Source: Candidatus Zambryskiibacteriota bacterium
GTDB taxonomy: Bacteria; Patescibacteriota; Minisyncoccia; Phycocordibacterales; Zambryskibacteraceae
Length of the DNA stretch: 51,594 nt
Direction of reading: 5' to 3'
NCBI GenBank assembly: GCA_009691335.1
Contig: SICR01000002.1
Span: forward strand, 1 to 51,594
The notes under the pieces were generated by a model, which was given only the letters and a program-made list of their open reading frames with translations, did no database searches and was not told the DNA's origin. Below, in pieces: positions 281-49,673 of the stretch (position 1 is the stretch's first letter; each line of letters opens with the position of its first letter). A program made the position numbers and the translations under genes.

Positions 281-311
281 CCGCAAAAATTTGGAATTCA
301 AATTTTTGCGG
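281..311 (-). terminator. Hairpin at the 3' end of tRNA-Ser (13-bp AT-rich stem, 5-nt loop)
   Basis: ccgcaaaaatttg-gaatt-caaatttttgcgg. It overlaps the last bases of the tRNA. There is no clean U-tract after it. Confidence 0.35.
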
Positions 312-395
312 AGACGATGAGATTCGAACTCATGAGGGCTTTTAAACCCTACCTCGTTAGCAGTGAGGCGCTTTCGACCACTCAGCCACGTCTCC
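309..395 (-). tRNA. tRNA-Ser (anticodon GCU), long variable arm, CCA not encoded
   Basis: Reverse complement reads GGAGACG-TG-GCTGAGTGGTCGAAAGC-G-CCTCA-CTGCTAA-CGAGG-TAGGGTTTAAAAGCCCTC-ATGAG-TTCGAAT-CTCAT-CGTCTCC-G. Acceptor and T arms pair perfectly. Confidence 0.9.
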
Positions 396-3698: not shown

Positions 3699-3771
3699 GC
3701 GCGTGTAGCTCAGTTGGTAGAGCGCCGAGCTTATACCTCGGTGGTCCTAGGTTCGAGCCCTAGCACGCGCA
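3699..3771 (+). tRNA. tRNA-Ile with genomically encoded anticodon UAU (reads AUA); CCA not encoded
   Basis: GCGCGTG-TA-GCTC-AGTTGGTA-GAGC-G-CCGAG-CTTATAC-CTCGG-TGGTC-CTAGG-TTCGAGC-CCTAG-CACGCGC-A. All four stems are Watson-Crick, with U33, A37 and A73. Confidence 0.85.
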
Positions 3772-4881: not shown

Positions 4882-4915
4882 AAAAAGCCCCCGCCGAATG
4901 GCGGGGGCTTTTTGT
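4882..4915. terminator. Bidirectional rho-independent terminator between convergent genes
   Basis: aaaaagcccccgcc-gaat-ggcgggggcttttt. Confidence 0.8.
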
Positions 4916-6861
4916 TATTTCTGATGTTCTATATCTTTCTTCTTTTTTAATTTTATTCCATGTAATACCAGAATTTCTTCGAACTCTTTCTGCTCAATAG
5001 TCTCTACTTCTATAAGCTTCTTTGAGATAGCATCGAGAACTTCTCTGTAGTCTTTGATAATTTTCTCCGCTTTTCTAACGGCGTCATTGATAATTTTAGA
5101 CACCTCCGCGTCTATTTGAGAACCAACTTGTTCTGAATAATCTTTATCCCCCACTCCGGTGCCAAACAAAGGCTTACCTCCCGAACTCTCAAGTGCAATA
5201 GGACCCATCTTCTCCGACATACCATACTTGGTAACCATATCGCGAGCTAGAGCAGTAGTGACCTGCAAGTCATTGGATGGACCGGTAGTCACATCTTCAA
5301 AAATATTTTTCTCCACCACATATCCGCCGAGACCCACTGCGATATCGTCAAGGAATTCTTTCTTCGATTGAAGTTTGCGCTCCTCCAATGGTAACTTCAT
5401 GGTGAAGCCGAGCGCTCGACCACGAGAAATAATGGATATTTTATGCACCGGGTCAGCATACGGAAGGACGGAAGCGACGAGAGCGTGACCGGCTTCGTGA
5501 TACGCAGTGAGTTCTTTCTCTCTCTCCGACAACAAATGACTTTGGCGTTCTGGTCCGAGCATAACCTTCTCAATAGAGCGAATAAGGTCGAACTGGGCCA
5601 CCGTCGTCCTGTTCTCGCGTGCGGCAAGTATGGCCGCTTCATTCATAAGCGAGTACAGATCCGCACCGGAGAATCCCGGAGTACGTTCGGCTATTACAGA
5701 TAGGTTCACATCTTCGGCAAACGGTTTCTTCCTCGCGTGTATCAAAAGAATTTCTCCCCTGTCTTTCCTATCCGGAAGATCAAGTGTTACTCGCCTGTCG
5801 AATCGGCCGGGGCGCAGAAGCGCTGGGTCTAAGACATCCGGCCTGTTGGTGGCAGCCATAACGATGACCTTTTCATTTGGTTCGAAGCCATCCATCTCAA
5901 CTAGAATCTGGTTGAGTGTTTGCTCGCGCTCGTCATTGCCTCCGCCAACTCCGGTACCTCGCACTCGCCCAACTGCATCTATCTCATCTACGAAGATAAT
6001 TGCTGGAGCGGCTTTCTTGGCCAAGTCAAACAGGTCGCGCACGCGTGAAGCTCCAACCCCCACGAACATTTCTACGAACTCAGAACCGGAAATGGAGAAG
6101 AATGAAACTCCAGCCTCCCCCGCTACTGCTCGAGCAAGAAGAGTCTTGCCCGTACCCGGCGCACCCATAAGGAGAATGCCCTTAGGAATCCTAGCTCCAA
6201 TGTCCAAGAATTTCTTCGGATTCTTTAAGAAATCTACGATCTCACGCAACTCTTCTTTGGCTTCCTTGGAACCGGCAACATCTTTAAAGGTCACCTTCTG
6301 ACTTAGATCACCCGGAGATATCATCCGCGCTTTGGACTGGCCGAAGGTAAATGCTTGCATGCCTGCGCCCTTCACTTGTCTTGAGAGAAACCAGAGGAAA
6401 AAAAGGATAAAAAGAATGGGTAGAATGATAGGAGCGAGAGAAGAGAACCAATAAAGAAAGCCTTGGTCATTCTTCACCTCAATCTTTACTTCAGATAGAG
6501 CGTCTGCGGGGACATCATAATTTTTCAGCGTAGTGGTCAGAGCGGTATTTGTTTCTTTCTTGGAAATTTTTTCTTCACCGTCTTTGTAAGTGATAGCAAG
6601 CTTATCTCCGCTTATGACAATGCCAGAAACCGAGCCTGCCGTTATGTCCTGAGCAAGCTCAGAGAGAGGGACATCCGAAGTTTTAGAAGAAAGGCCAGAG
6701 AGAGATGAGTAAGCGCTGACCAGAAGCAAAAAAATAATCAAAGATAGAAAGATCTGCCCCAACGGACCGCGAACCGGAGGGAGGGAACCTTTGATGGGAA
6801 CTTTTTTTATAAGAATTTTCTTGGTTTTCTTGAACCGGTCATTCATTTGCATGAGTTGCAT
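4915..6861 (-). CDS. ftsH: ATP-dependent zinc metalloprotease FtsH
   Basis: '[13 protein letters not shown]', 'IIFVDEID', SRH region, and 'HEAGHA' zinc site. The longest ORF start (6891) would overlap the divergent smpB start, so an internal ATG (6861, or 6852/6846) is more likely. Confidence 0.93.
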
Positions 6862-7358: not shown

Positions 7359-7758
7359 GGGGGTGTCAGTTTTGACACGTTGACAGCCCAGTATGTGCAA
7401 GCAGAGCTGAAGTGACTCTTTAATCCGCTTCAAAATTTAAGTGCAGACTCAATTGTCTCACGAGCAAAGTCAATTGTTTCGCCGTACTTTACGGCAAACG
7501 ACTTTGAGTTCGCATACGTCAGGGCGTAAGCTCGCGTAGCGTTCCGTCTCCATGCTGATCTGTCCGGCATAGGCATGTAGACGCTTTATCTGTCGGATTG
7601 TAATCCCATCAATGCTCGAGATGGGGCCAAACTTAGAGCTTTGTCTTTCTGGTGTTTTGTTTGATTTATAGTCAGAAAGCCGAGAACAAAAATCATCCTA
7701 AGCTTGTAGACTCATACTGGACATCTTCATGGACATGGGTTCAATCCCATCACCTCCA
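7359..7758 (+). ncRNA. ssrA: tmRNA (ssrA), standard one-piece, CCA not encoded
   Basis: 5' GGGGGUG pairs with 3' CACCUCC, including the G3:U alanine identity pair. T-arm is GGACAUGGGUUCAAUCCCAU. Tag ORF GCA AAC GAC TTT GAG TTC GCA TAC GTC AGG GCG TAA lies at 7494..7529. The gene is directly downstream of smpB. Confidence 0.88.
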
Positions 7759-7811
7759 CTGCTTCGCCAAGGCTTTACAGTGCACAGCACTGTAAAACTT
7801 TGACTCAAATT

Positions 7812-9883: not shown

Positions 9884-11248
9884 TTACAAATCTATTTCGT
9901 AAACCTTACCTTTCTCGGTAACGACTGCGTCTACCTCTAATTCATCTCGTAGGCGTTGGGCAAGGAAGATAGAGGATTTGGGTTCGCCCATCGCTACAAA
10001 AACTTTTTTCAAAGTATCCTTGCTCTCGGATACAAAATCCACAAGAGCATTAGAATCCGCGTGACCAGAGAAACCTTCTATTTTTTCCACTCTCGCCCTA
10101 ACCTCTATCTTGTTGCCATCAATAACGACAGACCTCACTCCTTCTTCGATTTGTCTACCTAAAGTCCCCACTCCTTGATAACCCACAAGAAGAAGAGTTG
10201 AGTTCTTGTCCGGCAAAAACATTTCCTCATGTCCGACAATTCTCCCAGCGGTAGACATACCAGAACCAGCAATGATTATTTTCGGCCCGGACACCTTCGC
10301 TATTTCGCGTGAATCACGTATACTGGCAGTTTCTTTCAATTGGGAGAATTTGAAAATATTATTATCCTTTTTAATCTCATTCTGCGTATTTTTGTTGTAC
10401 AAATCTCTTACATGCTCGAATATTTCTGTCACTTTTATCGCCAGTGGCGAGTCAAGATATACAGGAACGGAAGGGATACTCTTGGATTCAAAAAGTTTAT
10501 TTAACTCATAAAGAATCACTTGAGTGCGCTCGAGAGAAAACGCCGGAATAAGAAGTGTACCACCGCGCGATATTGACTCTTCCACTACTTGCTTAAATCT
10601 TGCCTCCCGAAGCTCGCGATCTTCATGATTTTTGTCACCATATACGCTCTCAATCAGAAGATAATCCAGACCGCTGACTTTCTCCGTGTCTGGTAAAAGC
10701 ACGGAGGGAGAGTTTCCAATATCTCCGGTACAAAGAATGGTACTACCATTCTTTGATGTGAATTTGATCATTGCTGAACCCAAAATATGCCCGGCATCAT
10801 ATAATTCGACCTTAAATTCGCCAAAATCCTTTGGTACATGATAAGCAATGGTTTTCCAAAGGTCCATCGCTCCGCTAATGTCGTTATAAGTATACAGAGG
10901 AGTCTCGTCGGCATTGTTGATTTTCGCCGCATCTGCCAACAGAAGTTTTGCAATCTCTTTGGTCTCAGGAATAGAGTAAATTTCTCCTCTGAATCCTTCG
11001 GCATAAAGTTTCGGAATAAGTCCGATATGGTCGATATGAGCATGAGTTACAAAGAGAGTGTCAACTGAAGACGCATCATATTGAAACCTCTCTCGATTGA
11101 TGCTGGGAGCATCAGCCAAACCTTGAAGCATCCCACAATCAACCAGTACCCTAGTTGTCTTAAGTTCGGATGAAGAGCTGGTAAACTCGAGCAAAAAATT
11201 TGCGCCAGTAGCAGTACCCGCTCCACCATAAGCAGTCAGCTTAGGCAT
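9884..11248 (-). CDS. MBL-fold beta-CASP family hydrolase (RNA-metabolising, CPSF/RNase J-like)
   Basis: 'VLVDCGMLQG', 'VTHAHIDHIG', and later 'GFSGHAD' beta-CASP C-terminal motifs. 454 aa. Confidence 0.8.
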   Translation of the reverse strand: MPKLTAYGGAGTATGANFLLEFTSSSSELKTTRVLVDCGMLQGLADAPSINRERFQYDASSVDTLFVTHAHIDHIGLIPKLYAEGFRGEIYSIPETKEIAKLLLADAAKINNADETPLYTYNDISGAMDLWKTIAYHVPKDFGEFKVELYDAGHILGSAMIKFTSKNGSTILCTGDIGNSPSVLLPDTEKVSGLDYLLIESVYGDKNHEDRELREARFKQVVEESISRGGTLLIPAFSLERTQVILYELNKLFESKSIPSVPVYLDSPLAIKVTEIFEHVRDLYNKNTQNEIKKDNNIFKFSQLKETASIRDSREIAKVSGPKIIIAGSGMSTAGRIVGHEEMFLPDKNSTLLLVGYQGVGTLGRQIEEGVRSVVIDGNKIEVRARVEKIEGFSGHADSNALVDFVSESKDTLKKVFVAMGEPKSSIFLAQRLRDELEVDAVVTEKGKVYEIDL

Positions 11249-11883: not shown

Positions 11884-12501
11884 TTACTCCAGAATACCGT
11901 CTAAATTAACATCATAAATGATCTCTTCTTGCACTAAACGATAGTTTGTAAGCTCATTAGAGTTAAACCAATGTGCTATTTCCTTATTGGCTTCGTCTAC
12001 CGAACCAGAAGCGTGAATGAGATTCCTAACAGAGCGATTATCCTTGTCTGACATAGAATAAGAGTCCAAAACATAGTCTCCCCTTATAGTACCGACATCT
12101 GACGTCAAAGGTTCTGTGCCACCTACAAGCTTGCGAACAATCTTGACCGCATGCGCACCCTCCCAAATCATGGCAACCACAGGGCCAGAGGTCATATACT
12201 TCTTGAGATTCTCTAGGATTATCTCCGTTATCTTATAGGGATCATCGATAGGTGGTTCCATACCCTTGGACCTATAGCCTTCGATAGTCTTTTCTCCAGT
12301 AATCCGGCGCCACTCTGGGTCTAAGGTGTAATGCTTTTCTATATGAGCTTCATTGGGCACGAGCATCTTTATAGCCACAAGTTTAAGACCGACCCTTTCA
12401 AATCTTCCGATAATCTCACCCACTAAACTTCTTTGGATCCCATCTGGCTTTACTGCAGTAAATGTTCTCTCTTTCTTTGGGTGCGGGATATTGTTAGTCA
12501 T
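11884..12501 (-). CDS. ndk: Nucleoside diphosphate kinase, long form (205 aa)
   Basis: 'ERTFTAVKPDGIQRSLVGEIIGRFERVGLKLVAIKML', 'GTIRGDY', 'NLIHASGSVDEANKEIAHWF'. It has extra segments relative to ~140-150 aa NDKs. Confidence 0.88.
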   Translation of the reverse strand: MTNNIPHPKKERTFTAVKPDGIQRSLVGEIIGRFERVGLKLVAIKMLVPNEAHIEKHYTLDPEWRRITGEKTIEGYRSKGMEPPIDDPYKITEIILENLKKYMTSGPVVAMIWEGAHAVKIVRKLVGGTEPLTSDVGTIRGDYVLDSYSMSDKDNRSVRNLIHASGSVDEANKEIAHWFNSNELTNYRLVQEEIIYDVNLDGILE

Positions 12502-12563
12502 TGGAATGACAAGGCTTCGCCTTGCTTCAGGTTCGCTCGGGCTCTATGTGAGCAAGCTCTCAT
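12498..12563 (-). CDS. 21-codon mini-ORF bridging map and ndk (MRACSHRARANLKQGEALSFQ)
   Basis: Its ATG overlaps the map TGA (ATGA, 12560..12563) and its TGA overlaps the ndk ATG (ATGA, 12498..12501). GAGGG lies 3 nt upstream of its ATG. Translation is not proven. Confidence 0.3.
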   Translation of the reverse strand: MRACSHRARANLKQGEALSFQ

Positions 12564-12582
12564 ATTCCCTCGCTGCCAGAAG
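12525..12582 (-). repeat. Copy 1 of a ~60-nt structured module (see copy 2 at 21959..22020)
   Basis: The 49-nt core 12526..12574 matches 21962..22010 at 42/49 positions. The differences include compensatory pairs in a hairpin. Confidence 0.8.
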
Positions 12583-13345
12583 TTAGAATTATATTTCCTT
12601 TCTCTGTAATTGCAACCGTGTGTTCAAAGTGAGCGCTTCTTGAACCATCTCTTGTAACGAGAGTGTAACCATCTTTGGTGAGTTTTATTTCTGGACCACC
12701 GGTATTTAGCATCGGTTCAATGGCGAGAACCATACCCGGAACCAACTTTTCTCCTTCTCCTTTCTCTCCAACATTTGGCACAAATGGATCTTCGTGTACG
12801 CTATACCCCACTCCGTGGCCGGCCAAATCTTCCGCAAGAGAAAATTTGCTCCCACCTACTACTTGGGCAATAGCATACCCAATGTCTCCAACAGTATTCC
12901 CCGGCTTTGCCACCTCTATACCTTTATCCAATGCAAGCTTTGTAATATGAAGAAGTTTTCTAGCTTCATCATCAATTACACCAACTCCCACAGTAACGGC
13001 TGAATCTGTAATGAGTCCCCTATGCATAAGACCAAGATCAATAGAAACAATGTCTCCCTCTTTTAAAAGCCTTTCAACTTCATTGGGGATACCGTGAACG
13101 ATCTCGTTGTTTATAGACACACACAGTGCCGCAGGGTAAGGACGCTTGGCACCACTTGGCTGATAGCCGAGAAAGGCTGGCTCGTCCCCCATGGCTTTAA
13201 TCATTGCTAAAGCTTCTTCTTCTAGAGCAAGCGTAGAGACCCCAGACTTGGCTATAGAAGCTAGTTCGGAGAGTATTTGAGCATGGCGCTTACCACCCTC
13301 TTGCATAATGGTGATTTCTTCTCTTGTCTTAAGCCTGATAGTCAT
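12560..13345 (-). CDS. map: Type I methionine aminopeptidase
   Basis: 'VHGIPN', 'GDIVSIDLG', 'GHGVG', 'LAIEPM', 'FEHTVAIT' metal-ligand motifs. Confidence 0.93.
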   Translation of the reverse strand: MTIRLKTREEITIMQEGGKRHAQILSELASIAKSGVSTLALEEEALAMIKAMGDEPAFLGYQPSGAKRPYPAALCVSINNEIVHGIPNEVERLLKEGDIVSIDLGLMHRGLITDSAVTVGVGVIDDEARKLLHITKLALDKGIEVAKPGNTVGDIGYAIAQVVGGSKFSLAEDLAGHGVGYSVHEDPFVPNVGEKGEGEKLVPGMVLAIEPMLNTGGPEIKLTKDGYTLVTRDGSRSAHFEHTVAITEKGNIILTSGSEGI

Positions 13346-21248: not shown

Positions 21249-21941
21249 TTATTGGTTACTACCACTCATTTCACTGCGAAGTTTCTCTATAAATCGAGAT
21301 GCCGCTTCCTGACCACCAAGGCCGAATGAAAGGCCAAGAGCCAGAGAAATAGCGATAACAACGCCAGTAAAGAGGGTCTGACTGAACGCAGCGGCAATGC
21401 CAAGATGCGAGAGAGCTACAAGGATAGCGAATACCAACACAGCTCGCTTGGCGATAGCGCCAGCAAAGTGCGCTGATGCAATGCCAGCAGTCCTTGCTCC
21501 CGTAACGACGACACGACCAACCACATCACCGATAACACCTCCAACTAGAAGTACCAAGGCCGCAGCCAGTACTCTAGGAAGATAGGCCAAAACCACTTCC
21601 TTGATAAAGAGATTGACTTGGACAAGACCCAAGATCTCAAGTGCTGTCATCAAGAAGACTACAACTACAAACCACTTTACCAGGGACCCTAAGAAGGCTC
21701 CAGCATCAAGACGAACACCTCCTCTCTGGAGGAACGACTCGAAGCCAGCGCGACGCAAAGCGTCATCAATCTTAAGAGATCTGAATACTTGCGAGATTGC
21801 GCGGCCCAAAAGAGCTCCGATTAGCCATCCGAGTATCAGGATGACCACTGCAATTACAAGGTTCGGGACGAAATTGACTACTCCGATCCAAAGATTCTGA
21901 AAAGAGAGCTGCAATACCTGTCCCCATGTGTTCAATAACAT
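21249..21941 (-). CDS. Conserved-TM-helix repeat membrane protein (CmpX / MscS-N-terminal-like)
   Basis: 230 aa. Repeated 'LP..L.A..VL..G...G..' TM units, Ala/Gly/Val rich. Visibly more G+C rich than the flanking ribosomal genes. Confidence 0.55.
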   Translation of the reverse strand: MLLNTWGQVLQLSFQNLWIGVVNFVPNLVIAVVILILGWLIGALLGRAISQVFRSLKIDDALRRAGFESFLQRGGVRLDAGAFLGSLVKWFVVVVFLMTALEILGLVQVNLFIKEVVLAYLPRVLAAALVLLVGGVIGDVVGRVVVTGARTAGIASAHFAGAIAKRAVLVFAILVALSHLGIAAAFSQTLFTGVVIAISLALGLSFGLGGQEAASRFIEKLRSEMSGSNQ

Positions 21942-21958
21942 ATGTTAACTGAATGTTG

Positions 21959-22020
21959 GTTTTCAGGTTCACTCGGGCTCTGTGTAAGCGAGCTTTCACA
22001 TTCCCTCACTACCTGAAAAC
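21959..22020 (-). repeat. Copy 2 of the ~60-nt structured module (10-bp outer stem gttttcaggt/acctgaaaac)
   Basis: See copy 1. It lies 17 nt upstream of the ATG at 21941, in the same orientation as that gene. Confidence 0.8.
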
Positions 22021-22089
22021 GCTTTAAGCTGTTAATTTACCACTTTTCGAGGGGTATGGCGTAATTATACACCTACAAATAAAGACAAA

Positions 22090-47091: not shown

Positions 47092-48189
47092 ATGAGAAAG
47101 GACTTTTATCGGAGTGTCTTCACTATTTTATTGTTTATTGCCGGAGGGACAATGCTGTTAAATCAGACTTCTTCTGAAGTCTCTCAAGAAATACACAATA
47201 TCAAAGCGCTTAAGAATGTAGGTGAACGGTCTAAGGAACTCCTGAAGCTTATTGACAGAGTCGGACCTATTGAGGCTCAGGAAAAGATGCTTAATTCAGG
47301 GATGCCCTTTGACGGAGAAACCCATCTTTTAATACACACCATTGGTGATTACATTTATGACTACTACGGTATCGACGGTCTCCCCTACTGTCGCGATTAT
47401 TTCTTATCTGCCTGCTATCACGGTTTTATCATCAATACCCTGGGAGATCATGGAGAGAGCGGTGTAGTGGAAGCGATAGAGAAATGTAACGAAGAAGGCA
47501 GACCTGTGGCGACGCAGTGCGCCCATGCTACCGGCCATGGATTCGTAGCTTGGCATGATTATGACCTCATAAAAGCTCTCAAGATGTGTGACGAGGTTGG
47601 GAATAAGATTACTAATTTTGGGTATTTCAACTGCTATGACGGAGTGTTTATGGAAAACATGTGGGGAGTCCACGATGGAGTCCCTTCAGAGAAAAGGTGG
47701 GTAAACCCAGACGATATTTACTACCCATGCAACGATCGGCGCATACCAGAGAAGTACTTGGGCGGATGTTGGGCCAATCAAGCTTCTCTTATATATCAAT
47801 ACTCCAAGGGAAACTTCAGAAAAACCGCTATCGCTTGCGATGCCGTAGGAAACTTAGAATATCGCAACACTTGTTACAACAATCTTGCCAGGCAAATTCA
47901 CCCATTGACTAACGGCAATAGCAAGAAAGTTCTTGAGCTTTGCGCTAACGCCACAGGAGAAGAGAGAATAAATGAGTGTATTCTCGTAAACATGGGCTCT
48001 TCGTGGTCGGTAGGAGATCGCAATGGTCCATATGAGATATGCGAGATCGTATCCGAACCTCTTAAGAGTAAGTGCCTTGACCGATTGATTGGTTTAGTAA
48101 GTTACCATTATGCTCTCGATCAAAAAAACCTAGAATTTTATTGTGATAAGATAACTCGCGAAACAGACAGACAAAGATGCAAACAATAA
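47092..48189 (+). CDS. Exported Cys/His-rich repeat protein, paralog 1 (unassigned family)
   Basis: N-terminal anchor 'VFTILLFIAGGTMLL'. Eight C-x(8-14)-C units. The start is taken after the divergent pilB ATG. Confidence 0.65.
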   Translation: MRKDFYRSVFTILLFIAGGTMLLNQTSSEVSQEIHNIKALKNVGERSKELLKLIDRVGPIEAQEKMLNSGMPFDGETHLLIHTIGDYIYDYYGIDGLPYCRDYFLSACYHGFIINTLGDHGESGVVEAIEKCNEEGRPVATQCAHATGHGFVAWHDYDLIKALKMCDEVGNKITNFGYFNCYDGVFMENMWGVHDGVPSEKRWVNPDDIYYPCNDRRIPEKYLGGCWANQASLIYQYSKGNFRKTAIACDAVGNLEYRNTCYNNLARQIHPLTNGNSKKVLELCANATGEERINECILVNMGSSWSVGDRNGPYEICEIVSEPLKSKCLDRLIGLVSYHYALDQKNLEFYCDKITRETDRQRCKQ

Positions 48190-49673
48190 ATAGATTTGAG
48201 ATTCAAGATTTAGGATTTAAGAATAGATTATTACTTCTTATTCTTACTACTTGCTTCTTACTTCCTACTTCCACTTTTGCTCACGGCGGAGTAAATGACG
48301 ATAAACTCATCATCCGAATGACTGAAAACGGCTTTGAGCCCAAAGAGCTCACTGTTGTAGAGGATGATGATGTCCTGTTCATCAACAATGACGAGGTGGA
48401 TCGCTGGCCTGCATCTAACTTCCACCCGACACATACTCTCTACCCAGAATTCGACCAGAAGGAAGGCCTCGCTCCGGGACAATCATGGACATTTAAATTC
48501 GAGAAAGTGGGCACTTGGCGGATGCACGACCATCTAGTCCCACACTTTACTGGCACTATCGTGGTTTTACCTGTCCCGAGCGTAGTCGCTGGAGAAAATC
48601 CAGAGAAAGATGAAGTTGATCCTCCACTTGGAAGCTCAACTTCCAAGTGGTTAAGTTTCAGTTTCTGGACAAAATTTAAAGCCTTTTTGCTCAAATTTTT
48701 TTATTCCCAAAATAATACAGCCGAGAACAGCACACAATTTAAAAATCTAAGCGAACAAAATAAATATAAATGGCTTGAAGATGTCTCTAACCGCGAAGGG
48801 CCTAAGGTTGCCTGGAAACTTGTACTAGATACATACAACACTCCTGAGGGAGTGTTGGGCAATCCACATGACATGGCCCACTTGGTTGGACAACTTATCT
48901 ATAAAGATTACGGCTTTGAAGGGCTCTCCACCTGCACCCCAGTTTTCGCCTTCGGCTGTTACCACGGACTTATGGAATCAGCTTTTGATAAGAACGGAGT
49001 CCGTGACAACGAAAAAAATCATCAGACAGACCTTCTGTCGGCAGAAACTGGCTGCCGACAAGTCGGCATTGAAACTTCCCCAACATATTGGAGCTGCATA
49101 CACGGCATGGGACACGGCATTGCCACTTTCCGTGAACATAATGCCGACAAATCTCTAGCAGACTGCGACATCCTTAAGGAATCTATTAGAACCTACTGCT
49201 ATGACGGAGTGTTTATGGAGTTTTCTATCAGTGCACCAGCAAATTTTTATAAAAAAAGTGACCCTATCTATCCGTGCAATGTCGTCCAAAATACACATAA
49301 AACCGCCTGCGCCCGCTCTCAAGTGCAAGTAATGAGGCTACGATTCCATATGGATACCAAATCTGTGGCAAATGTATGCATTAAAAGCGACAATCAAGAC
49401 ATCATTCATCACTGTATCGATGCCTTGGGATATTTCATCGCTCAAGACGCAACGGTTGGCGGTGCGGATAAGATAATAGCTGGTTGCAATGTTATAAGCG
49501 ATAAAAGTTCAGCCGCCCAATGCCTAGCTGCGGCTGCTGGTGAATTGGTTTTCCAAGATTCAGCCAATTGGCATTCAATTACTGAAAAAATCTGCGCGAG
49601 TCTCTCCGGAAAAGATGCGGGTAAGTGCCTAGCACGCATCACTCAAGTAAAATCCTCCTATGGCAGAAAATAA
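48177..49673 (+). CDS. Exported cupredoxin-like domain fused to the Cys/His-rich repeat domain, paralog 2
   Basis: Signal 'LLLLILTTCFLLPTSTFAHG'. Beta-rich 'IIRMTENGFEPKELTV...GTWRMHDHLVPHFTGTIVVLP'. Seven Cys-pair units follow. 13-nt overlap with paralog 1. Confidence 0.65.
   Translation: MQTINRFEIQDLGFKNRLLLLILTTCFLLPTSTFAHGGVNDDKLIIRMTENGFEPKELTVVEDDDVLFINNDEVDRWPASNFHPTHTLYPEFDQKEGLAPGQSWTFKFEKVGTWRMHDHLVPHFTGTIVVLPVPSVVAGENPEKDEVDPPLGSSTSKWLSFSFWTKFKAFLLKFFYSQNNTAENSTQFKNLSEQNKYKWLEDVSNREGPKVAWKLVLDTYNTPEGVLGNPHDMAHLVGQLIYKDYGFEGLSTCTPVFAFGCYHGLMESAFDKNGVRDNEKNHQTDLLSAETGCRQVGIETSPTYWSCIHGMGHGIATFREHNADKSLADCDILKESIRTYCYDGVFMEFSISAPANFYKKSDPIYPCNVVQNTHKTACARSQVQVMRLRFHMDTKSVANVCIKSDNQDIIHHCIDALGYFIAQDATVGGADKIIAGCNVISDKSSAAQCLAAAAGELVFQDSANWHSITEKICASLSGKDAGKCLARITQVKSSYGRK

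Follow-up and report, generated by a model that had tools for sequence, protein, structure and literature searches.

Two copies of a 58-nt irregular hairpin, both read on the minus strand, are carried by a 51,594-nt stretch of contig SICR01000002.1 of Candidatus Zambryskiibacteriota bacterium (the window, by which we mean the whole stretch analysed). They probably belong, with a likelihood that we put at about 0.6, to an uncatalogued family of small non-coding insertion elements in Zambryskibacteria-like Patescibacteria, that is, mobile hairpins resembling repetitive extragenic palindromic (REP) elements and miniature inverted-repeat transposable elements (MITEs) that act as single-stranded nucleic acid. 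Among known systems, REP and IS200/IS605-type hairpin elements stand nearest to this element; its link to −35 boxes is unusual. The genomes of Patescibacteria are tiny and densely packed, mobile DNA is considered scarce in them, and their non-coding elements are little known.

A repeat search of the window aligned positions 12526-12581 with 21962-22017 (56 nt, 84% identical), the sole long two-copy family of its kind within the window, and the motif GAGGGAA-N(15-35)-AGCCCGAG occurs exactly twice there and in none of 100 shuffles. The duplicated module of ~60 nt reported in the initial annotation is thus real, and every difference between the copies that was listed there is found in the sequence. 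The compensatory pairs UAUG/CAUA to UGUG/CACA and GAGC/GCUC to AAGC/GCUU are present, and an outer C-G pair has become U-A. The two C-to-U changes in AGYGA motifs are also present, with the refinement that they form two sides of adjacent G-C/C-G pairs that have turned into G-U/U-G. Fold prediction gives the same irregular hairpin for both copies on the minus strand. The 58-nt core of copy 1 (12525..12582, minus strand) is identified by the repeat family, by its fold and by a covariance model, R1, with 86 bits, and reads CTTCTGG CA GC GA GGG AA [UAUG A GAG CUUG CUC A CAUA] GAG CCC GA GC GAA CCTGAAG. According to the fold and a comparison among copies, the core is accompanied by a second hairpin, CAAGGC-GAA-GCCTTG, and then TCA (12510..12524, minus strand). 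The right end of copy 1, GCCTTGTCA, is the TTGACA end of other copies with one base changed. Copy 1 is nearer to a copy in another organism, L043, with which it shares an identical second hairpin, than to copy 2. The core of copy 2 (21961..22018, minus strand) scores 80 bits with R1, and its fold has z = −3.5. Its outer stem is lengthened to 10 bp (GTTTTCAGGT/ACCTGAAAAC), the second hairpin is absent, and the end is CAAC.

The family extends beyond the window. A pattern scan of species-representative genomes returned 25 matches, of which 18 were GC-rich chance matches and seven contained the hairpin; all seven come from assemblies of the Candidate Phyla Radiation (CPR), namely Zambryskibacteria, a Minisyncoccia bin and one other bin. 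The corresponding metagenome scan gave 21 loci, 18 of them confirmed at 65-92 bits by R1, which was built from the first nine copies and which located two more, further diverged copies on the same metagenome contigs. After removal of duplicates there are 23 distinct copies, the two in the window and 21 elsewhere, all in Zambryskibacteria-like Patescibacteria. Since these 21 further copies contain compensatory changes, the duplicated module is not a product of chance. Three scans of viral contigs, with the full pattern and with each half, gave no match. Both window copies recur unchanged in freshwater DNA metagenomes from three studies, in which the empty allele of neither was seen. A comparison of metagenome contigs with the 58-nt core recovered only the exact copy and missed even copy 2, a method too insensitive for counting copies in the source community.

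In the model alignment of the 23 copies, 98.1% of the cells form standard pairs and 11 of the 19 pairs have changed on both sides, a result equalled by none of 500 shuffles and abolished when the partners are slid against each other. Covariation is seen in all four helices. The outer stem CTTCAGG/CCTGAAG varies to CTTAAGG/CCTTAAG, CAACAGG/CCTGTTG, CTCTAGG/CCTAGAG and CTTCGGG/CCCGAAG, the GGG/CCC helix varies to GAG/CTC, and both apical helices change repeatedly. The purine-rich internal loops (CAGCGA, AA, AGAG and GAGCGAA) are nearly invariant. Rfam 15 holds no family that matches either window copy, at the gathering score or at E<=10. The strand layout of the internal loops fits neither a K-turn nor a sarcin-ricin motif (by inspection only). 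GAGGGAA...ACAGAGCCCG resembles the J3/4-P4 strands of RNase P, yet none of the RNase P models gives a score there.

The copies lie beside genes for FtsH, DUF378, a GyrB-like protein, RecO, RmuC, TrmD, RsmH/FtsL, FtsZ/TrxB-like proteins, UvrB, a glycosyltransferase, the ribosomal proteins L2/L10 and L27, and one copy (L048 773-830, minus strand), with the variants CTTCGGG/CCCGAAG and GAG/CTC, is situated ~240 nt upstream of the 5′ end of 16S rRNA. As these neighbours are unrelated housekeeping genes, a gene-specific leader is excluded, and a riboswitch is rejected likewise, many copies being upstream of a promoter or antisense. The upstream gene is co-oriented with the element in 15 of the 21 loci that can be scored, and in eight of these it ends between 22 nt inside and 14 nt before the element. 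Other copies stand in different relations to transcription: L020 is antisense within the spacer of an ftsZ-trxB operon, copies of the L008 group come after the ftsH terminator, within the antisense 3′ region of DUF378, and L048a is antisense in a 5′ untranslated region (UTR). The outcomes that the initial annotation named as refuting, no further copies or copies with broken helices, did not occur: pattern scans together with the covariance model brought to light 21 more copies with their helices kept, which speaks for the structure. The same copies mark the element as one dispersed by insertion and not as a leader tied to one gene.

The site of copy 1 is the junction of map and ndk. The map gene (methionine aminopeptidase, PF00557 by domain match; 12560..13345, minus strand) ends in ILTSGSEGI and a stop, and ndk (PF00334 by domain match, 205 residues; 11884..12501, minus strand) has a start that is backed by homologues of 200-205 residues. 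In relatives with 80-84% identical ndk (L001, L004, L055 and L057), the element is absent and the two genes overlap directly. Their empty junctions read ...AATATAATTCTTACTTCCAATGACTAA in L001, ...TCTAACCTCAAATGACTAA in L057, ...TCTTACTTTAAATGACAAATAA in L055 and ...TCATGA in L004; L001, L055 and L057 follow the pattern ...CT(T/A)AC, 5 nt and ATGAC. Compared with these three, the window junction, ...TCTAACTTC[75 nt]CAATGACTAAC, contains an extra block of 75 nt (12504..12578, minus strand), whose boundary is ambiguous by 3 nt owing to a shared TTC, so that 12507-12581 is equally possible. The last six codons and the stop of map (SGSEGI) come from the element, where the relatives end in ILTSND and a stop, and 58 nt now lie between map and ndk. 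Copy 1 would therefore appear to have landed in the 8-nt map/ndk overlap, swapping the last map codons and parting the two genes by 58 nt. We also note that ndk is annotated publicly on this contig with only 160 residues (P0071), whereas the 200-205-residue homologues, at 97-100% query cover, favour the upstream ATG at 12501. A promoter-like TTGCAA-16-TATAAT, a match to the consensus only, is present at 12588..12615 (minus strand) inside the conserved 3′ coding sequence of map, and also in relatives. If this promoter is real, the relatives would produce a nearly leaderless ndk mRNA, and the mRNA would begin here at about the first base of the element.

Copy 2 is located downstream of a gene resembling winged helix-turn-helix (wHTH) proteins and ahead of a gene for a 230-residue membrane protein (21249..21941, minus strand) with the mechanosensitive-channel transmembrane-helix repeat (PF05552, domain match), the ATG of which is 13 nt past the end of the insert. 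Alignment with L058 and L059 reveals an extra block of ~65 nt, TTTTCAGG...ACCAAC (21955..22019, minus strand), relative to the wHTH/MscS-like spacers of these relatives. Their membrane proteins are 84-88% identical to that of the window, their spacers have 101-105 nt without the element, and R1 gave no match on either locus. The insert stands before a conserved ATTCAGTTAA...ATG. A TATAAT preceded by TG (GTGTATAAT; 22064..22069, minus strand) occupies invariant alignment columns, and is probably a promoter, so that the 5′ UTR of the gene for the membrane protein would include copy 2; a simple promoter scan missed it because it has no −35 box. In this 5′ UTR (22020-22075, minus strand; L058 and L059), the conserved −10 box (GTGTATAAT) is accompanied by a conserved block, CATACCCCTC.AAAAGTGGTAATTAACAG, which could be a separate regulatory leader.

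Comparison with close relatives, from which they are absent, thus shows both window copies as evident lineage-specific insertions. The reverse situation is met at 4889..4921, where the window has an empty site: the convergent ftsH/DUF378 junction holds the bidirectional terminator only, and the syntenic junctions of L008, L036 and L046 contain a copy. The window genes converge there (4889-4990) on the single bidirectional terminator AAAAAGCCCCCGCC-ATTC-GGCGGGGGCTTTTT. Similarly, the mraW/ftsL junction is empty in L012 and filled in L052; a 15-nt direct repeat around the L052 copy proved to be A-rich coding sequence that is also found at the empty L012 site. The rplB-rplJ spacers of L026 and the window could not be aligned, and no further empty site was defined from them. 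Neither terminal inverted repeats nor a target duplication of constant length was found in the copies, and the filled and empty sites differ by no duplication at copy 2 and an ambiguity of at most 3 nt at copy 1. A DDE-type MITE is rejected for the lack of terminal inverted repeats and of a target duplication of fixed length, for its variable 3′ end, and for flank repeats that are sequence-specific and not site-specific duplicates.

The ends of the element are characteristic. A second hairpin, free in sequence and length and usually closed by GNA or a similar small loop (e.g., GCGAAGC), comes after the core in 21 of the 23 copies. Its base is typically GCAA...TTG, followed by AC, which generates the right end TTGAC, or (C/T)TAC in a variant without G. 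The second hairpin is not an inverted copy of the target flank, as that of copy 1 bears no relation to the native flank and recurs identically in L043. The right end forms TTGAC[AT]-N16-17-TAnnnT, often with TG upstream, in 12 of the 23 copies, a canonical promoter in which the end of the element is the −35 box; across these loci the pattern has a background of 0.15 per kb, and half of its occurrences are the element sites themselves. An exact TTGAC end is always accompanied by a −10 box 16-17 nt further on (12/12), and copies without a −10 box have the decayed ends TCGAC and CTGAC or, in copy 1, TTGTC. To the left of the element stands TTGAC in 12 copies and YTAC or TAAC in seven (19/23 together), always in the same orientation, and the type of this flank matches the right end, TTGAC with TTGAC and YTAC with YTAC. 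Pairing of the internal GCAA is possible with the TTG of either word, left or right, in which we infer only a likeness to the pairing of guide and cleavage site in IS200/IS605. A terminator-like site (GC-rich hairpin and U-tract) was seen at neither window copy, and right flanks rich in T are not the rule.

Taken as such a family, the element probably is, or was, mobile, and its folded single strand, most simply single-stranded DNA, would be recognised by some enzyme in the manner of REP or IS200/IS605. Insertion would occur after TTGAC or YTAC in one orientation and would therefore frequently land in −35 boxes, which the end of the element regenerates; this word may be most often available and tolerated as a −35 box. 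A stronger version, in which the element homes to the TTGAC of −35 boxes or to TTAC-like words at gene ends by means of the internal GCAA as guide and rebuilds the −35 box, and in which some copies have been domesticated, given the slower evolution of syntenic copies compared with adjacent genes, would define a promoter-homing class in CPR; we consider it unlikely. The same ends admit a host element that works as DNA and is tied to promoters, such as an insulator or a protein-binding site just upstream of −35 boxes. The 12 copies that abut a canonical promoter are in its favour, as is the conservation of the core at syntenic sites, but the other 11 copies, including both in the window, are followed by no promoter, and covariation in four helices with loops and one-strand wobbles indicates a single-strand fold and not a duplex operator, so that this proposal appears very unlikely.

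As to the strand that is recognised, G-T wobbles outnumber A-C mismatches by seven to three on the element strand in the 23-copy alignment. Both DNA strands fold, and the given strand is the more stable under DNA parameters. Because the orientation relative to transcription is not constant, recognition at the level of DNA fits better than a function as sense RNA. Judged from these sequences, the data favour recognition of one DNA strand, a role as RNA being less probable.

In Proteobacteria, REP elements and REPINs are served by RAYT (RayT) Y1 transposases. The present element, with its 23 copies situated between genes or at gene ends, shares with them the form of short, dispersed, extragenic imperfect palindromes, the folding as a single strand with covarying stems and the capacity to persist at fixed loci, and its clade, like REP hosts, encodes RayT-family genes; the RayT/Y1 family (PF01797) is common there, with 5,217 matches. 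Unlike REP elements, it has no 5′ GTAG, the left flank being TTGAC, YTAC or other, and it occurs as single copies rather than inverted pairs, two to three seen per genome against tens to hundreds. The hairpin is much longer (58 nt) and has invariant internal loops, and the RayT-like genes are not flanked by the element. Membership of the REP/RAYT system is not shown, because two defining features, the GTAG and the flanked RAYT gene, fail. In relatives, a RayT-like Y1 gene (L001 5543-6157; L060 10001-10618) is situated in synteny after ndk-DUF2238-beta-CASP. The window has no RayT-like gene after its beta-CASP gene (9884-11248), and a tblastn search of the whole window found none. A RayT-like gene and the element occur together in assembly JANLIM01 (L060 and L008).

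Among the IS200/IS605 insertion sequences (IS), IS608 inserts 3′ of TTAC and ISDra2 3′ of TTGAT, and derivatives without an open reading frame (ORF) are known as palindrome-associated transposable elements (PATEs). The likeness to these consists in the lack of terminal inverted repeats and of a regular target duplication, in hairpins at both ends, in apparent insertion in one orientation next to a word of 4-5 nt (TTGAC, TTAC/CTAC) that closely resembles the targets of that family, and in the possible guide-like pairing of this word, beside the hairpin, with the internal GCAA. In contrast to IS200/IS605, no full-length parent is among the matches, the left hairpin directly abuts the target, the same word is present at the left flank and the right end, and copy 2 breaks the target rule. 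Putative mobile promoters, as well as IS elements with outward-facing −35 boxes, were reportedly described by Matus-Garcia et al. in 2012. The present family is similar in that a dispersed homologous segment supplies a −35 hexamer to unrelated genes. Nevertheless, all 12 TTGAC-ended copies find a −10 box already in place at 16-17 nt, hence insertion into pre-existing −35 boxes fits better than the creation of new promoters. Rickettsia palindromic elements (RPEs) offer a further parallel, as small palindromic inserts that are tolerated in or at the ends of genes of reduced genomes and that change the peptide; here, the C-terminus of map is altered, and the insert has 75 nt, or 25 codons. RPEs differ in being longer, usually in frame within ORFs, and without reported targeting of promoter boxes. 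Integron attC sites are excluded, since the R″/R′ cores RYYYAAC...GTTRRRY are absent and the outer stem is CTTCAGG/CCTGAAG.

Several observations weigh against a mobile element. No mobilising gene was found, no copy lies within ~74 kb around the RayT-like genes examined (L060-L065) or beside that of L001, and no long autonomous version (a tnpA/tnpB parent) is among ~30 matches. The number of copies looks low (two to three seen per genome; the 51.6 kb of the window contain two, and two other assemblies gave three and two matches to the exact pattern), unlike the bursts of classic REP elements or MITEs. Copy 1 has one base (A) beyond TTGTC, copy 2 is without an xxAC left flank, and L053a is also off the target rule. 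Part of the near-invariance of the loops is artefactual and stems from the search patterns, in which GAGGGAA, AGCCCGAG and GAACC were constant; these patterns left GCAGCG and the AG ahead of AGCCC free, and both still hardly vary. The GC skew of the element strand, determined on short loci, is 14 against 9, not significant for a replication strand; within the window, the strand of the element is everywhere the richer in G, an observation that gene orientation confounds. Finally, the three syntenic copies (ftsH > terminator > element < DUF378) are 91-95% identical in the core, while the last 240 nt of ftsH are 67-76% and DUF378 66-67% identical and the left spacer cannot be aligned; their second hairpin changes by compensatory substitutions. 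Such conservation of the core is unexpected for a neutral relic, and points to constraint in situ, homogenisation or repeated homing.

The same contrast, a core identity of 91-95% against 66-76% in the flanking coding DNA, is an argument for a structured RNA module that serves the host, for instance by binding a protein or ligand or as a 3′-end, processing, stability or 5′-UTR element, and that has spread by recombination rather than transposition. Helices that covary around internal loops of nearly constant sequence are what a functional RNA usually shows, both window copies are within transcription units, and with 15 of 21 upstream genes co-oriented and eight ending at the element many copies would be transcribed in sense. 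This is countered by the lack of a neighbouring gene family in common, by several copies that are only transcribed in antisense or lie behind intrinsic terminators, and by close relatives that are without the element at the same junctions. Moreover, in L036 a G-T wobble keeps the sense-strand fold where sense transcription should have been terminated. We assign a low probability to such a module and retain the single-stranded mobile hairpin as the preferred reading.

At the map/ndk locus, copy 1 harbours an ORF of 21 codons (MRACSHRARANLKQGEALSFQ and a stop; 12498..12563, minus strand, by translation). Its ATG overlaps the TGA of map and its TGA overlaps the ATG of ndk, both junctions being ATGA, and no Shine-Dalgarno (SD) sequence is seen before ndk at this locus. 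The chain and the SD-less ndk are as described in the initial annotation, which interpreted the module as gating translational re-initiation into ndk or as a translated coupling mini-ORF. In support, L052, the sole other promoter-less sense copy between formerly adjacent genes (mraW/ftsL), also has a bridging ORF: 18 codons from the same AUG (MRACSQSPSEPEAIITRL and a stop; MRACS...), with its UGA overlapping the AUG of ftsL. The frame of a downstream membrane protein in L009 is open back to a GUG at the start position of the mini-ORF, so the few sense copies directly before a promoter-less gene (window, L052 and L009) all have an ORF, started by A/GUG, that joins the next gene. Bridging ORFs are not improbable by chance, however, since the conserved 3′ half is free of stops in two of its three frames. 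The majority of copies lie before promoters, behind terminators or in antisense, the would-be peptide is altered by the compensatory changes, and the frames differ between the window and L052. At the start codon, AUG and GUG replace each other as one member of a covarying pair, and L020 lacks the codon; the helices and internal loops are kept across copies and not the frame, and the ORF is no conserved feature. Nor can the module be upheld as a cis-regulator of ndk, considering that the relatives couple map and ndk by direct overlap without it and that its copies elsewhere have unrelated genes as neighbours and lie ahead of promoters, behind terminators or antisense to operons. Gating of ndk, or a translated coupling mini-ORF, is accordingly highly improbable as the function of the family. 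The mini-ORF may instead be a local, secondary accommodation at this locus, an explanation that we regard as plausible though less likely than not; it would then probably be a by-product, perhaps under selection, through which ribosomes pass on into the SD-less ndk and the broken coupling is restored.

If the family is correctly read as mobile, small structured insertions move, or have moved, in the genomes of Patescibacteria, and are tolerated at places as sensitive as gene overlaps, −35 boxes and 5′ UTRs, where they can alter the ends of genes and disrupt or restore translational coupling. The model of sequence and structure, in which 11 pairs covary and for which Rfam has no counterpart, would be usable for the annotation of CPR genomes, and would avoid the miscalling of riboswitches or small RNA genes. 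If the targeting of −35 boxes and the slow evolution at syntenic sites are true, the family would provide a tractable case of a hairpin element nearing domestication.

Other features were recorded in the window and its relatives. The window contains a tmRNA gene (7359-7761, plus strand; 113 bits) and tRNA genes at 3699-3771 (plus strand) and 309-395 (minus strand). An exact 25-nt direct repeat, ACTGCTATGACGGAGTGTTTATGGA, is located at 47630-47654 and 49195-49219, 1565 nt apart, inside paralogous genes for exported proteins. In a relative (L001 712-1554; L003 716-1558), a gene for a 280-residue reverse transcriptase (RVT_1) is situated directly upstream of adk, the usual place of secY.

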